Shown in pieces: positions 1 through 5,904 of a stretch of 11,387 nucleotides of DNA. The translations under genes and the position numbers were made by a program. This DNA is from a virus (taxonomy: Duplodnaviria > Heunggongvirae > Uroviricota > Caudoviricetes), in IMG/VR virus record IMGVR_UViG_2563366866_000006; one strand, written 5' to 3'. The notes under the pieces are model-generated. The model ran no database searches and was not told the DNA's origin. It worked only from the letters and a program-made list of their open reading frames with translations. The first letter of the stretch is position 1; each line of letters opens with the position of its first letter.

Positions 1-288
1 TTTAAGGGATTAATTCCTTCAAAAGTAAAATCTCGCCCGCAATGTTGTGACGATGACGCGATGATCATTTGCGGGTGCATGGCCCGTCTGAAAAATAACA
101 ACAGCGATTTGCATGATTTGTTAGTGGACTATTATGTCGGCGGCATGACTTTTATGGCGCTTGCGCGTAAGCATGGTAGATCTGATTGTTGGATTGGCAG
201 GATGCTCCAAAAAGCTGAGGGCGTAGTGGAGGGCATGCTGATGGTGTTGGATCTCAGATTGGAGATGGATGCTGATTGTTTGAGATAA
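1..288 (+). CDS. Late antiterminator Q (phage 21/82/DLP12 QuuD-like), C-terminal part; the 5' end lies outside the window
   Basis: Frame 1 is open from base 1 ([31 protein letters not shown]...) to the TAA at 286-288, so the 75-aa ORF in the track is only the tail of a longer protein. The Cys-rich [12 protein letters not shown] segment and the following sequence match my recollection of DLP12-type Q proteins. Its position directly upstream of the late promoter and lysis genes fits Q. Confidence 0.75.
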
Positions 289-300
289 TTAAAGGAAAAG

Positions 301-350
301 TTGCTGTCTGGTTATCATTAGACTAATGTTTCAAATGTTAGAATCGCAAC
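301..350 (+). promoter_or_regulatory. Candidate late promoter pR' (extended -10 element TGtTAGAAT at 336-344) about 50 bp downstream of the Q stop
   Basis: Sequence atgTTAGAATcg has a TGn-TAGAAT extended -10 at 336-344. No good -35 is present, which is typical of Q-dependent late promoters. Its distance from the Q stop resembles lambda. It could instead belong to the IS200 left end. Confidence 0.3.
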
Positions 351-386
351 GTAGTTATGATCATATAACAGCTTGTTCCCTGATTT

Positions 387-415
387 AGCCAGCCTCCCCA
401 AAGGCTGGTTTTTTT
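387..415 (+). terminator. IS200 left-end hairpin with rho-independent-terminator shape (stem 389-394/403-408, loop tccccaaa, T-run 409-415)
   Basis: ccagcc...ggctgg is a perfect inverted repeat followed by seven T residues, read directly from the sequence. In IS200 this structure is known to block read-in transcription. Confidence 0.7.
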
Positions 416-425
416 GTGCACAGAA

Positions 426-448
426 AACCCCCAGCTAGGCTGGGGGTT
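426..448 (+). promoter_or_regulatory. IS200 tnpA 5' UTR stem-loop (aacccccagc-tag-gctgggggtt), probable translational control structure
   Basis: A perfect 10-bp stem with a 3-nt loop, read directly. Its C-rich arm is complementary to the AAGGGGG Shine-Dalgarno sequence just upstream of the tnpA start at 559. Confidence 0.55.
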
Positions 449-558
449 CCGGAAAGCTTTCAGCTTTGAGCCAGTTATTAAAACCCCTTTTGATTTGTTA
501 AAACACCTTGCGGTCTGGCAACTGCAAGTGTCAAACAAGAAATCAAAAGGGGGTCCCA

Positions 559-1017
559 ATGGGGAACGAAAAGAGCTTAGCGCACACCCGATGGAACTGT
601 AAATATCACATAGTTTTTGCGCCAAAATACCGAAGACAGGTGTTCTACAGAGAGAAGCGTAGAGCAATAGGCAGTATTTTGAGAAAGCTGTGTGAGTGGA
701 AAAGCGTACGGATTCTGGAAGCTGAATGCTGTGCAGATCATATCCATATGCTTGTGGAGATCCCGCCTAAAATGAGCGTATCCGGGTTTATGGGATATCT
801 GAAAGGGAAAAGCAGTCTGATGCTTTACGAGCAGTTTGGTGATTTGAAATTCAAATACAGGAACAGGGAGTTCTGGTGCAGAGGGTACTACGTCGATACA
901 GTGGGTAAGAACACGGCGAAGATACAGGATTACATAAAGCACCAGCTTGAAGAGGATAAAATGGGAGAGCAGTTATCGATTCCCTATCCGGGCAGCCCGT
1001 TTACGGGCCGTAAGTAA
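559..1017 (+). CDS. tnpA: IS200 transposase TnpA (HuH Y1 transposase, about 152 aa)
   Basis: Translation MGNEKSLAHTRWNCKYHIVFAPKYRR...HIHMLVEIPP...YIKHQLEEDK carries the HuH motif (HIH) and the catalytic Tyr region, and matches my memory of Salmonella/E. coli IS200 TnpA almost exactly. The start is placed at the internal ATG at 559, preceded by AAGGGGG, rather than at the ORF-track start at 508. Confidence 0.93.
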   Translation: MGNEKSLAHTRWNCKYHIVFAPKYRRQVFYREKRRAIGSILRKLCEWKSVRILEAECCADHIHMLVEIPPKMSVSGFMGYLKGKSSLMLYEQFGDLKFKYRNREFWCRGYYVDTVGKNTAKIQDYIKHQLEEDKMGEQLSIPYPGSPFTGRK

Positions 1018-1090
1018 CGAAGTTGGATGCAAATGTCAGATCGTGTGCGCCTGTTAGGGCGCGGCTGGTAAGAGAGCCTTATAGGCGCAT

Positions 1091-1127
1091 TTGAAAAACC
1101 TCCGGCTATGCCGGAGGATATTTATTT
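1091..1127. terminator. Bidirectional intrinsic terminator hairpin (cctccggc-tat-gccggagg), mainly serving the minus-strand lipocalin gene
   Basis: Perfect 8-bp GC-rich stem at 1099-1106/1110-1117. On the minus strand it is followed by TTTTTCAA, about 40 nt downstream of the lipocalin stop. On the plus strand it is followed by a weaker ATATTTATTT. Confidence 0.6.
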
Positions 1128-1155
1128 CTAATAAGTATCAATCCGGTTAGGTATT

Positions 1156-1680
1156 TTATTGTTTGACCCATAATAGTTCATTGACATTGAATCCCAATTT
1201 TTGAGCAGTACGCACATAGTCTGCTTTTACATTATCTGGAATAGTTGGAGTCCGTGCCAGAATCCATAGGTATTCTCTGTTCGGACCACTGACAAGAGCA
1301 TACTTATACTCATCATCCAGTTTGATTACATTATAGCCACCATAGAAGGGGCCAAAAAACGAAACCTTCAACGCTGCAGTTGTATTATCTCCTGTAAAGT
1401 ATGCTTTACCTTCGCTCTCGCTCCATTTGTTTTTCGTTGGGTCATATCCACGATTAAGTACACTAATCCCTCCGTCGTTCCGTTTCCCATAAGTGGCGCT
1501 GACCTGTTCCAGACCACGTTCAAATCGGTTCTCAAGCCGAGCTATTTCATACCATTTTCCGAGGTAGCGGTTGGTGTCAAAATTTGTAATCGGCTGCACA
1601 CCTTTAGGTGGTGTCGGGGCCTTACATGCTATCAGAGTGAAAGAGAGTGCAATGCCAGTCAACACAGGCCATAACTTCAT
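1156..1680 (-). CDS. Outer-membrane lipocalin lipoprotein, Blc family
   Basis: 174 aa. Signal peptide with a lipobox (FTLIAC, Cys19). Conserved lipocalin core YLGKWYEIARLENRFERGL...KVSFFGPFYGGYNVI...YLWILARTP closely parallels E. coli Blc. ATG at 1678-1680 with an AGGA about 8 nt upstream. Confidence 0.9.
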   Translation of the reverse strand: MKLWPVLTGIALSFTLIACKAPTPPKGVQPITNFDTNRYLGKWYEIARLENRFERGLEQVSATYGKRNDGGISVLNRGYDPTKNKWSESEGKAYFTGDNTTAALKVSFFGPFYGGYNVIKLDDEYKYALVSGPNREYLWILARTPTIPDNVKADYVRTAQKLGFNVNELLWVKQ

Positions 1681-1872
1681 AATATATCCTGTACTTTTGA
1701 TAGTTGAGAGTAAGTATTAAAGATAGATGATTACTACCGATCACCTAAAGAACTTTCCTACTATATTAGGAATAGTCCATAACAAAAAAATTGTCAGTGA
1801 TGACGGCAGAAAGGCAGTTTAGGTCGTGTACTACACTGTTAACCTGTTAATGAATTAGTCAAGGGGTAGGCA

Positions 1873-2832
1873 ATGATAAAAAAACCTGTCGTTGGGATCA
1901 GTGGTTGTTTGGCCGGTTCTTCTGTCCGTTTTGATGGTGGTCACAAAAGAGCTAGCTTTTTAATGGACAAATTACTGGAATGGGTAACATTCAAACCAGT
2001 ATGTCCGGAAATGGCTATAGGGCTTCCAGTTCCGCGTCCTGCTCTACGTCTTGTTCGCTCGGCGCAAGGAAATATACGGATGTGTTTCAGCCACGACCAG
2101 AATGAGGATGTTACAGAGAAAATGACAGAGTTTAGTCGTTCTTATCTTGACAAATTAAAGGATGTATCGGGATTTGTGGTTTGTGCAAAATCTCCTAGCT
2201 GTGGTATGGAACGCGTGCGTGTATATGATGAAAATGGTAATCGTGGTCGTAAAGATGGAGTGGGACTATTTACGAGCACGTTGATGGAAAGGTTTTCCTG
2301 GCTACCGGTTGAAGAGGATGGGCGACTACATGATCCAGTGCTTCGTGAAAACTTTGTTGAAAGAGTATTTGCTTTACATGAGCTCAATCATCTTTATAAA
2401 GCGAAATTATCAAGAAGGGAATTATTAGCTTTTCATAGCCGTTATAAGCTTCAGTTGTTGGCGCATAGCCAGGCCGGTTATAAAGAGATGGGGCCATTTG
2501 TGGCTGCAATACATGAGTGGGCAGACCTTGAATCATACTTTGAGGTGTATCGTGAGAAGCTGATGGCGATTCTCAGAAAACCTGCATCACGTAAAAATCA
2601 CACGAATGTGCTGATGCATATACAGGGATATTTTAGTAACTGCTTAAATACACGTCAGCGTAAAGAGTTGAGCGATGTTATACTTAACTATCGAGCTGGC
2701 ACGCTACCTCTTCTTGCGCCATTAACTTTGCTGAAGCATTACTTGGCAGAGTATCCTGATGATTATTTGCTTATACAGAATTACTTCCACCCCTATCCTG
2801 ATGAACTGGCTCTAAGACTCTTGGTGAACTAG
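1873..2832 (+). CDS. DUF523 (TudS-like [4Fe-4S] thio-nucleobase desulfidase domain) fused to DUF1722; YbgA-family protein
   Basis: 319 aa. N-terminal half has three Cys in the spacing expected for TudS cluster ligands (GISGCLAG Cys12, CPEM Cys44, CAKSPSCG Cys105), plus a fourth Cys at 110. C-terminal half resembles the helical DUF1722 domain. RBS AAGGGG lies 6-7 nt upstream of the ATG. Confidence 0.8.
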   Translation: MIKKPVVGISGCLAGSSVRFDGGHKRASFLMDKLLEWVTFKPVCPEMAIGLPVPRPALRLVRSAQGNIRMCFSHDQNEDVTEKMTEFSRSYLDKLKDVSGFVVCAKSPSCGMERVRVYDENGNRGRKDGVGLFTSTLMERFSWLPVEEDGRLHDPVLRENFVERVFALHELNHLYKAKLSRRELLAFHSRYKLQLLAHSQAGYKEMGPFVAAIHEWADLESYFEVYREKLMAILRKPASRKNHTNVLMHIQGYFSNCLNTRQRKELSDVILNYRAGTLPLLAPLTLLKHYLAEYPDDYLLIQNYFHPYPDELALRLLVN

Positions 2833-3150
2833 GCGTTTGGAATGCACCAACAAGATGATTTTCTCCTTAGAGAATGTTTACAATCGTAAAAACTTCACTA
2901 TGATATCTATAGTTGTACAGTTTGTAAAAAAATTCGGTTCATGCTTAAGGTAATGTTAATATGTTAATTAATGATTAATAATCAAGCAAGCCAAAAATAG
3001 TTCTGTTTAATCTAGTATTACATAAATATTTTAAAGAAAATATCAAAGTTCATGATGATATAATGAGATTTTTCTCATTGAAAATATGGCAATTTTAATA
3101 TTTCCACCTATACTTACTTAACTCAAATCTAATTATGTCAGGTGGATGGT

Positions 3151-3882
3151 ATGCCATGCATATGTTCTATCATTTTGGTTTTGAACTCGTTTGATATCCG
3201 GCTTGGTAAAGAAAAAATCTCTCTAAAAAAAGGAAGTGTTGTTGCTATAGAATACAATTTAAAAGTTTTCTTTTCTTCAAATAAAGATAATATAATGATC
3301 GTGGATATTGAAGAGAAAACAGTTAATGACTTCTTTAAAAACAATACACTCTCACCTTTTTCTGTAAGAAGATTTTATTCAGCATACTTGATAGTAAACT
3401 GTACAGACTATTCATTGTTAAAGAACTTGATAGGTTGCTTGAATTGTGATGGTGAAACTACGGCTGTAGTTAAAAATTCAATATTATTTGCATGTCTTGC
3501 TATTTTATCCTCGGAAAAAATGTTTCAGAGTTTTTTGTTTGGGTGTCTTAATAGTTTAGGAAGCAAAGTTAAGGCTATTATTCACTCGGACATATCTGCA
3601 GCATGGAGACTTTGTGATATTTCTTCAAGACTATGTCTGAGTGAAAGTTTGTTAAAAAGAAAACTAAAACACGAAGGCTTATCATTTAGCAAATTAATTC
3701 TTGAAGAACGAATGGTGATGGCTGAAAGGTTATTAAGCTACAATTTCTATCCTGTTGGGAAAGTTGCTAAAATATGTGGTTATGAAAGCGCGTCATATTT
3801 TATAAGTGTTTTCAGAAGATATTTTGGTGTTCCCCCCCATGAATATTCATCAAGATTTTTTTTAGAAAAAGGCAAGATGTAA
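3151..3882 (+). CDS. AraC/XylS-family transcriptional regulator (AppY/GadX/PatE-like), horizontally acquired
   Basis: C-terminal AraC-type double helix-turn-helix (...LCLSESLLKRKLKHEGLSFSKLILEERMVMAERLL...VGKVAKICGYESASYFISVFRRYFGVPPHEY). The gene and its 310-bp upstream region are strikingly AT-rich. ATG at 3151 with AGGTGG 5 nt upstream is preferred over the in-frame GTG at 3142 used by the ORF track. Confidence 0.85.
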   Translation: MPCICSIILVLNSFDIRLGKEKISLKKGSVVAIEYNLKVFFSSNKDNIMIVDIEEKTVNDFFKNNTLSPFSVRRFYSAYLIVNCTDYSLLKNLIGCLNCDGETTAVVKNSILFACLAILSSEKMFQSFLFGCLNSLGSKVKAIIHSDISAAWRLCDISSRLCLSESLLKRKLKHEGLSFSKLILEERMVMAERLLSYNFYPVGKVAKICGYESASYFISVFRRYFGVPPHEYSSRFFLEKGKM

Positions 3883-3943
3883 CGTGATGCGTTTTGATGA
3901 TTTTGTAATTTTCATATTTGATGATTATATGATGCTTTCAGCT

Positions 3944-3973
3944 ACGCCAGAATAATCGCTGGCGTTTTTCTTT
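3944..3973 (+). terminator. Rho-independent terminator downstream of the AraC-family gene, upstream of the holin (possibly serving as tR')
   Basis: Stem acgccag (3944-3950) / ctggcgt (3959-3965) with loop aataatcg, followed by TTTTTCTTTT. Confidence 0.6.
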
Positions 3974-4049
3974 TCTAATGTAACTTCTGTATCTTTCCCT
4001 CTTTCATTCCAAACCGTGTACACCATCCGTTATTCGCGGAGGTGAGGCT

Positions 4050-4265
4050 ATGAAATCCATGGACAAGTTAACAACGGGCATTGCCTACGGCACCTCTGCA
4101 GGCAGTGCTGGCTACTGGTTTTTACAGTGGCTTGATCAGGTCAGTCCGTCACAGTGGGCGGCGATTGGAGTGCTTGGAAGCCTTGTGTTGGGTTTTCTCA
4201 CTTATCTGACAAACCTTTATTTCAAGATTAAAGAAGATAAGCGTAAGGCTGCGAGAGGTGAATAA
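4050..4265 (+). CDS. S: Class II holin, phage 21 S21-type pinholin with dual-start motif (Met1/Met4)
   Basis: 71 aa, [53 protein letters not shown]..., matching S21/EssD as I recall them. Two transmembrane segments. The M-K-S-M start gives the antiholin (71 aa) and holin (68 aa) forms. Strong RBS GGAGGTGAGG. Confidence 0.95.
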
Positions 4266-4762
4266 TGTCGCCATCATTACGCAAGGCTGTAGCAGCTGCT
4301 ATTGGTGGTGGGGCTGTTGCCATAGCGTCTGTGCTCATCACTGGTCCGAGTGGTGACGATGGTCTGGAAGGTGTCAGCTACATACCATATAAAGATATTG
4401 TTGGTGTATGGACTGTATGTCACGGGCATACAGGAAAAGACATCATGCTCGGTAAAACGTATACCAAAGCAGAATGCAAAGCACTCTTGAATAAAGACCT
4501 TGCCACTGTCGCCAGACAAATTAACCCGTACATCAAAGTCGATATACCGGAAACAACGCGCGGCGCTCTTTACTCATTCGTTTACAACGTGGGTGCTGGC
4601 AATTTCAGAACATCGACGCTTCTTCGCAAAATAAACCAGGGCGATATCAAAGGCGCATGTGATCAGTTACGTCGCTGGACATATGCTGGCGGTAAGCAAT
4701 GGAAAGGTCTCATGACTCGTCGTGAGATTGAGCGTGAAATCTGTTTGTGGGGTCAGCAATGA
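4265..4762 (+). CDS. R: SAR (signal-anchor-release) endolysin, T4-lysozyme-like (GH24), phage 21 R21-type
   Basis: 165 aa. Gly/Ala-rich N-terminal SAR domain ([20 protein letters not shown]). Catalytic triad at the canonical positions E35, D44, T50. Start overlaps the holin stop. Confidence 0.95.
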
Positions 4763-5251: not shown

Positions 5252-5545
5252 TTATTGTGAGCAATAGACACGCGCTTCCAGCGGAGTATAAATGCCTAAA
5301 GTAATAAAACCGAGCAATCCATTTACGAATGTTTGCTGGGTTTCTGTTTTAACAACATTTTCTGCGCCGCCACAAATTTTGGCTGCATCAACAGTTTTCT
5401 CCTGTCCAATTCCCGAAACGAAGAAGTGATGGGTGATGGTTTCCTTTGGTGTTACTGCTGTCGGTTTGTTTCCAACAGTAAACGTCTGTTGAGCACATCC
5501 TGTAATAAGCATTGCCAGAGCGGCAGAAAACAACATTTTTTTCAT
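5252..5545 (-). CDS. bor: Bor lipoprotein (serum-resistance, lysogenic-conversion protein)
   Basis: 97 aa from the ATG at 5543-5545 (MKKMLFSAALAMLITGCAQQTFTV...GLLGFITLGIYTPLEARVYCSQ), near-identical to lambda Bor as I recall it. Lipobox ITGC. The ORF-track start at 5593 is a longer upstream extension that I reject. Confidence 0.92.
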   Translation of the reverse strand: MKKMLFSAALAMLITGCAQQTFTVGNKPTAVTPKETITHHFFVSGIGQEKTVDAAKICGGAENVVKTETQQTFVNGLLGFITLGIYTPLEARVYCSQ

Positions 5546-5904
5546 CTTATTATCCTGCATTGTTAAAAACGGCAGAATCCTATGTGACAACAATTAAACG
5601 ATAGTTAAATGGATTGATGAAAATTAAAACTATATAGGTGGATGCTCAGCCTATTGGAGGAGGGGGGCACTCAGAATCCTGTGGAATGAAATAAACCGCT
5701 CTTTCTGTCCATTACCCTTTTAGCTGCGCTGTATCGTCGCCGTATTCCCGCATTAACCATGACCGTAGCCCGACGGGGAATTCCTTCTGCGTGAGTGTGC
5801 GGGAATAATCAAAAACGATGCACACCGGGTTTTACTGTGCTGACAGACGCAGGGTTACCCTCATAGTCGCTTTTCCGGTGCGATGGTGGAAGAAACCGGG
5901 ATGT

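Follow-up and report, generated by a model that had tools for sequence, protein, structure and literature searches.

The prophage regulators PatE and PsrB and the K-12 regulator AppY activate the acid-resistance genes gadE and/or hdeA (PMC10877973; PMC10057817). Type III secretion is repressed by PsrA and PsrB (PMC10877973), and this repression acts through GadE/YhiF (reviews). At the hdeA promoter, the activation site mapped for PatE is also the region bound by PsrB, and gadE is a direct target of AppY (reviews). Here, a further gene of this kind is described from an 11,387-nucleotide stretch of a Caudoviricetes record (IMGVR_UViG_2563366866_000006), referred to as the window. The gene and its leader occupy positions 2833-3882. 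An earlier note on this DNA had called PatE and PsrA/PsrB controllers of host acid resistance and type III secretion, with which the reviews concur (gadE and hdeA for PatE and PsrB, secretion for PsrA and PsrB). The gene product is an uncharacterised member of the already known family of prophage AraC-like glutamate decarboxylase (GAD) regulators. With moderate confidence we consider it a functional PatE-like regulator, carried as a phage add-on gene, expressed in the lysogen from its own promoter and acting on the acid fitness island of the host.

One intact open reading frame (ORF) was found in 2833-3882. The following features were assigned to it:

3151-3882, plus strand: coding sequence of the regulator, a 243-amino-acid AraC/XylS protein, stop codon included; product identical to WP_001112170.1
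3151-3540, plus strand: N-terminal regulatory domain, residues 1-130, with beta-strands followed by helices in the AlphaFold2 model
3553-3861, plus strand: C-terminal DNA-binding domain, residues ~135-237, with two helix-turn-helix motifs, from Pfam and the match to GadX

The GTG at 3142, given as start in the ORF list, was rejected in favour of the ATG at 3151. This choice follows the position of the ribosome-binding site, the N-termini of the homologues, all of which open with M-x-x-(I/V/T)-C-S, and the RefSeq annotation, in which the NCBI Prokaryotic Genome Annotation Pipeline calls the equivalent ATG of the identical locus and gives the 243-residue product WP_001112170.1. Over residues 161-237 the protein scored 56.8 bits with Pfam HTH_18 and 47.6 bits with HTH_AraC, above the gathering cut-offs of 33.6 and 26.6, respectively. 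Together with the late-gene context, these matches bear out the description as an AraC/XylS-family regulator within the late region of a lambdoid prophage. In the AlphaFold2 model (mean predicted local distance difference test score 85.9), a beta-rich N-terminal domain is followed by helical linkers and by a DNA-binding domain of seven helices. The latter matched the GadX domain PDB 3MKL in sequence (E 5e-21), and the model superposed on it with a root-mean-square deviation (rmsd) of 1.3 A. The recognition helices are SESLLKRKLKH (residues 164-174) and SASYFISVFRRYF (residues 213-225). For the N-terminal domain only 11 representative proteins of 1.84 billion were found at E<=1e-3. Where members of the homologue clusters are named, they come almost exclusively from Escherichia; one entry each is labelled Salmonella enterica and Shigella sonnei.

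By its sequence the regulator is placed among the AraC/XylS factors of the GadW/YdeO/AppY/PatE/Psr group, in a sister clade to PatE. The window protein shares 52-53% identity with PatE, 40% with PsrB, 34% with GadW, 29% with AppY, 28% with YdeO, 26% with GadX and 16% with YbcM. For the two regulators of enterohaemorrhagic Escherichia coli prophages that the earlier note had named and that were compared, the homology is full-length (PatE: 53% over 235 residues, tblastn E 3e-76; PsrB: 40% over 239 residues, tblastn E 4e-47). In a neighbour-joining tree, the window protein groups with the uncharacterised proteins P0010 (82% identity), P0011 (75%) and P0013 (62%), in the following called the 82%, 75% and 62% alleles. 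This group is sister to the PatE clade, and PsrB branches outside both. The identity to PatE is 38% in the N-terminal domain vs 68% in the DNA-binding domain, so the proposed architecture of a divergent N-terminal domain and a conserved C-terminal double helix-turn-helix, as in PatE and the Psr proteins, was found. The best NCBIfam model was YdeO (NF007407), aligned over residues 1-235, followed by GadX, HilD and HilC. Orthology to YdeO was rejected (112.7 bits vs an equivalog cut-off of 348), as was orthology to GadX (NF007432; 98.7 bits vs 500, C-terminal half only).

Two assignments define these comparisons. PatE (Z0321) was taken as ECs_0287 of strain Sakai, the sole AraC-like gene in prophage Sp1 (247 residues), by locus, length and AraC homology and not by explicit tag mapping. 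PsrB (Z2104) corresponds to EDL933_RS10010, into which the published Z2104 primers were mapped. PsrA (z1789) was found neither among the annotated genes of the Sakai prophages Sp6 (L006) and Sp7 and of the re-sequenced EDL933 at 1,628-1,662 kb (L008) nor by tblastn; the EDL933 stretch searched stops at 1,662 kb, short of the island end. PsrB was used instead. The psrA gene has been placed on O-island 50 (OI-50)/CP-933N, and PsrA is 90% identical to PsrB (reviews). The gene may be located in the island beyond 1,662 kb or at another site, or the numbering or assembly first used may not be the same.

The two recognition helices are well conserved. In recognition helix 1, 10 of 11 residues are identical to PatE and 9 of 11 to both PsrB and YdeO; in recognition helix 2, identity is 10/13 to PatE as well as to PsrB. 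Because of this conservation, the gadE/hdeA region is the most likely target, and the targets are less open than the words "unknown targets" in the earlier note imply.

In several respects the window protein resembles PatE (Z0321/ECs_0287; CP-933H/Sp1, O157:H7), which among the studied proteins is its nearest relative. Both are prophage-borne and of similar length (243 vs 247 residues), with homology over the full length and a shared N-terminal motif M-x-x-x-C-S-(V/I)-I. The patE gene is AT-rich as well (35% GC) and carries a TATACT about 40 nt upstream of its ATG. In contrast, patE is located at the right-hand end of a decayed prophage and not between Q and the holin gene, and its targets gadE, hdeAB and genes of the enterocyte effacement locus (LEE) are known by experiment, whereas for the window protein they are predicted. 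PsrB and PsrA (Z2104/Z1789, O157:H7 prophages) are AraC-like proteins of the same clade; the DNA-binding domain of PsrB is 55% identical, and psrB is likewise a late-region gene between a Q-like gene and the lysis genes. However, PsrB stands further off than PatE, psrB with its 44% GC has no strong AT bias, and in LEE-positive strains the psr genes occur in linkage with effector and pch loci. AppY, YdeO, GadW and GadX of K-12 share the family branch, the N-terminal motif and the recognition helices, and all act on the acid fitness island. AppY is moreover prophage-borne (DLP12) and AT-rich (32% GC). The identity to these four proteins is only 26-34%, and the scores for YdeO and GadX are far under the equivalog cut-offs. 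The best full-length structural matches were the virulence regulators Rns, CsvR and ToxT, for which complete structures have been solved (Foldseek E 6e-11 to 1e-7) and which also combine a beta-rich N-terminal domain with an AraC DNA-binding domain. Their identity is ~20% and the TM-score ~0.42; a different orientation of the domains in the model makes the overall rmsd large.

For the transcription signals, the leaders of five loci were aligned: the window, two loci of the 82% allele, one of the 75% allele and the P0013 locus (62%). The following elements were located:

2833-3150, plus strand: AT-rich leader from the stop codon of the neighbouring ybgA-like gene to the regulator ATG, with conservation across the five loci in its last ~90 bp
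2877-2904, plus strand: distal sigma-70-like promoter candidate, TTTACA-16-TATGAT, 10/12 consensus positions
3086-3114, plus strand: proximal promoter candidate, ATGGCA-17-TATACT, with the -10 element CTATACT at 3108-3114
3140-3145, plus strand: Shine-Dalgarno sequence AGGTGG, 5 nt upstream of the ATG
3944-3975, plus strand: intrinsic terminator with the stem ACGCCAG/CTGGCGT and an 8-nt loop, followed by TTTTTCTTTT

The sequence TATACTTA (3109-3116) is invariant in 5/5 loci, the 62%-identical P0013 locus included, and the candidate -10 TATACT and its spacing are kept in all of them. The same holds for TCAGGTGG and the ATG. Relative to the ATG, a TATACT is found at -39 in patE and a CTATAAT at -42 in psrB; therefore a promoter-to-ATG geometry common to the clade is indicated. 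CTATACT fits the sigma-S type -10 consensus. By comparison with the published consensus, the proximal -10 element may thus be of the sigma-S type. The upstream part of the leader is conserved only in loci which also carry ybgA: the block with the distal promoter candidate was found in the loci of the 82% and 75% alleles and is missing in the P0013 locus, which is without ybgA. The terminator hairpin (3944-3965) and its T-run are kept in the loci of the 82% and 75% alleles and separate the regulator from the holin gene. Its folding energy is -11.3 kcal/mol (z-score -3.2), and none of 200 shuffles folded as well.

The base composition of the region is exceptional. GC content is 26.7% in the leader (2833-3150) and 31.3% in the ORF (3151-3882), with 26% at third codon positions. 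For comparison, it is 42.7% in ybgA, 47.2% in the holin gene, 54.2% in the gene of the terminase large subunit and 48.3% in the whole window. Among 318-bp segments taken over the whole 11.4 kb, the five with the least GC all begin within 2821-2951. The region is also well below the host genome in GC; the E. coli genome has ~51%. The gene and leader are therefore, as the earlier note stated, far more AT-rich than the flanking phage genes (43-58% GC). The leader length of 310 bp given there needs correction to 318 bp with the ATG at 3151 as start. Its description of a leader full of A/T tracts holds insofar as such tracts are present: nine homopolymer A/T tracts of at least 4 bases were counted. 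However, shuffles of the same leader gave 7.1 +/- 2.4, and 27% of them reached nine. Since the tract density is not above that of the shuffles, the wording adds nothing to the AT-richness, and the tracts were rejected as an independent signal. It is the low GC content that suggests silencing of the regulator gene by H-NS.

The slot between Q and the holin gene has variable contents: nmpC in DLP12 of K-12, genes of a TerB-family protein and a SASA esterase in EDL933, and the regulator alone in the P0013 locus. There, P0013 lies directly downstream of a different antiterminator gene, without blc or ybgA, and PsrB is also encoded downstream of a Q-like gene. As an insert of deviant GC between conserved modules, the regulator gene is organised like a phage add-on gene, or "moron". 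In Stx phages, stx is located at the antiterminator-holin junction. Both stx and nmpC of DLP12 share with the regulator gene the slot and the deviant GC, together with an own promoter-like element and an own terminator, which for the regulator gene are candidates; here, in contrast, the cargo is a transcription factor with blc and ybgA instead of a toxin or porin.

At this site, stx is transcribed by read-through of Q-modified RNA polymerase after induction. The regulator could likewise be made in this way, mainly after induction, to reprogramme the dying host or to tune lysis. Its gene is part of the late operon, where it is placed directly between Q and the holin gene and shares the strand of the late genes, and the positions of P0013 and PsrB just downstream of antiterminator genes point in the same direction. 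Nevertheless, we regard such a late-phase role as very improbable: the own conserved promoter-like element and terminator suggest independent expression, the published phenotypes of PatE and PsrB are lysogen phenotypes, and an activator produced just minutes ahead of lysis would have hardly any time to act.

For expression in the lysogen, the following course is proposed. Lambda-like temperate phages would carry the regulator as a self-contained add-on, usually together with blc and ybgA. In the lysogen, the late operon would be kept silent by the terminator downstream of Q, and the regulator would be driven by a separate promoter of its own, located ~30 nt upstream of the ATG. With the sigma-S-like -10 element CTATACT, expression probably peaks in stationary phase and is probably damped by H-NS, and the own terminator would block this transcription from entering the holin gene. 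The protein most likely binds the AT-rich PatE/PsrB sites at the gadE and hdeAB promoters and activates them, which would raise the acid resistance of the lysogen. In LEE-carrying hosts, type III secretion would be lowered indirectly by the same route.

The distribution of the gene was examined in complete E. coli genomes. Of these, 109 contain the 1,050-bp region at an identity of 99% or more, and at least 80% of its length was found in 110 of 5,426. About 575 further complete genomes contain an ~85% DNA-identical allele in the same cassette. In addition, the cassette is 99.8-100% identical in 11 records of lambda-like phages, among them phage 1H12, which is classified by the International Committee on Taxonomy of Viruses; in this phage the regulator gene is annotated as "hypothetical protein". 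Listed by source, the carriers are mostly human isolates, including a cerebrospinal-fluid strain of O15:H18, sequence type 69 (ST69). The ratio of nonsynonymous to synonymous substitution rates (dN/dS) was 0.27, 0.23, 0.19 and 0.15 in comparison with the 82%, 75% and 62% alleles and patE, respectively, so that the gene is under purifying selection. The DNA-binding domain (0.10-0.17) is lower in dN/dS than the N-terminal domain (0.28-0.35).

Three loci with the exact allele were opened. Two are fully intact, and in the third the loss of 1 bp in the terminal T-run trims the last five residues. Of nine sampled loci with the ~85% allele, five are intact. The other four carry one frameshift common to two loci (after ...NLKDFF), one insertion of the insertion sequence IS1 and one of IS2 at the 3' end. 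The altered loci are L002:7096-7826, L018:396-1125, L004:6287-7394, L022:390-1163 and L015:619-1332. On disruption of the ORF in related strains, which the earlier note had raised as evidence against its proposal, the result is that disruption is sporadic: none of the three exact-allele loci is disrupted, 4/9 of the ~85%-allele loci are, and dN/dS is well below 1. Two further alleles, P0007 and P0009, are mosaic. Their N-terminal ~70 residues are like those of the 82% or 75% allele, and over the middle part their sequence is that of the window allele, which indicates intragenic recombination between phage lineages.

The disrupted copies could mean that the gene is a silent passenger, kept off by H-NS and slowly decaying, with no present role in the lysogen. 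The very low GC and the lack of a functional annotation in databases are also in line with this. We nevertheless consider it unlikely, given the dN/dS of 0.15-0.27 with a more constrained DNA-binding domain, the invariance of the -10 element, ribosome-binding site and terminator across diverged alleles, and the conservation of the allele in ~110 complete genomes as well as in complete phage genome records.

Several results weigh against a functional PatE-like regulator of the acid fitness island. The disruption of four of the nine sampled ~85%-allele loci indicates that the regulator is dispensable in at least some hosts. Promoter-like matches are not enriched in window positions 1-4300 (12 vs 11.6 +/- 3.9 in shuffles). 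Because the match count equals that of the shuffles, the promoter call is based on conservation and not on the number of matches. The H-NS nucleation motif TCGATAAATT gave no match in 2833-3882 at <=2 mismatches. The PHROGs family of the protein, phrog_1450, is labelled "unknown function", and a literature search by the protein accession numbers gave no match. Finally, the overall identity to PatE is just 53%, and that in the N-terminal domain 38%; the signals received and the partners contacted may therefore not be the same as for PatE. Even with similar helices, AraC paralogues can control different sets of genes. The sub-clade usually occurs together with blc and ybgA, and its N-terminal domain is hardly found outside Escherichia phages. 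It is conceivable, if quite unlikely in our view, that the regulon or input signal of the sub-clade differs from that of PatE and that the gene is a lysogenic-conversion switch of new specificity. One possibility is that the regulator senses a lipid or thiolated-nucleobase signal tied to blc and ybgA and rewires stress or colonisation genes in extraintestinal E. coli (ST69).

By ORF and Pfam annotation, the window is the late region of a lambda/DLP12-like prophage. The gene order is Q C-terminus, a terminator at the tR' position, IS200, blc, ybgA, regulator, holin, lysozyme and Rz/Rz1, and it continues downstream with a bor/iss homologue, ylcI, Nu1, the terminase large subunit, W and the portal gene. 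The neighbours of the regulator gene are:

61-288, plus strand: late antiterminator Q, C-terminal part (Pfam Phage_antitermQ); the full gene is present in the ST69 locus L001
387-415, plus strand: terminator downstream of Q at the lambda tR' position, common to loci without IS200
1156-1680, minus strand: blc-like lipocalin gene, first in the add-on cassette (Pfam Lipocalin_2; NCBIfam Blc subfamily 313 bits, cut-off 267)
1873-2832, plus strand: ybgA-like gene, second in the cassette, a fusion of a DUF523/2-thiouracil-desulfurase domain and DUF1722
4050-4265, plus strand: holin gene of phage 21 S type, first lysis gene, directly downstream of the regulator terminator

The cassette of blc, ybgA and regulator was likewise found in L001-L004 and phage 1H12, and ybgA is linked to the regulator in L001-L004 and L014. 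In view of this linkage in most loci examined, the protein could be a local regulator of its own cassette, controlling blc and/or the ybgA-like desulfidase gene, or of phage genes, instead of host acid resistance. Many AraC-family proteins control adjacent genes, and an inverted pair, TTTACAA ... TTGTAAA, is conserved just downstream of ybgA. This explanation appears improbable to us, since the 62%-identical P0013 follows a different antiterminator without blc or ybgA, PatE and PsrB are also without these neighbours, and all characterised members of the clade act on distant chromosomal promoters. In general, the local, silent-passenger and late-phase explanations fit less well than a PatE-like regulator of the host because of the loci without blc/ybgA, the purifying selection and the gene's own candidate promoter and terminator.

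Some further observations concern the surroundings of the gene. Promoter-like hexamers are present on both strands in 2877-2928, downstream of the ybgA stop, and overlap the inverted pair; the block is conserved in the ybgA-carrying loci. Its role may be that of a divergent promoter or of a site to which a regulator binds. The product of the ybgA-like gene is a 319-residue fusion, and the Blc lipocalin gene adjoins it in divergent orientation. The layout of the fusion, DUF523/2-thiouracil-desulfurase and DUF1722, is that of the TudS/RudS desulfidases, acting on thiouracil or tRNA 4-thiouridine. Both blc and ybgA are labelled "unknown function" in PHROGs.

The IS200 copy (~416-1126, tnpA 508-1017) sits exactly downstream of the T-run of the post-Q terminator, and its insertion point is the leader of the phage late operon. 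It is missing from the ST69 locus and from phage 1H12, both of which are otherwise identical around the insertion site. The insertion may affect Q-dependent late transcription. The whole window is covered by only two near-identical genome records, both with an extra IS2. The bor homologue (5252-5593, minus strand) has as its counterpart in the ST69 locus L001 the serum-survival lipoprotein Iss, according to RefSeq; it is a second known lysogenic-conversion gene of the same prophage. An Rfam scan of the window gave STnc490 (426-549), inside IS200, as the sole match and none in 2833-4050. Repeats in 2700-4100 were short matches only, probably due to chance.

The regulator or its ~85% sister allele is present in about one eighth of the complete E. 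coli genomes (110 + ~575 of 5,426). Since complete phage genome records carry it, the gene is presumably movable between strains by infection. It is an inexpensive, well-defined candidate for experiments on the entry of phage-borne AraC regulators into the GAD network and does not stand for a new type of biology. If it acts like PatE, PsrB and AppY, one lysogenisation would raise acid resistance, and with it survival in the stomach, in commensal as well as extraintestinal pathogenic lineages. This would extend a principle that has so far been demonstrated only in O157:H7 and K-12.

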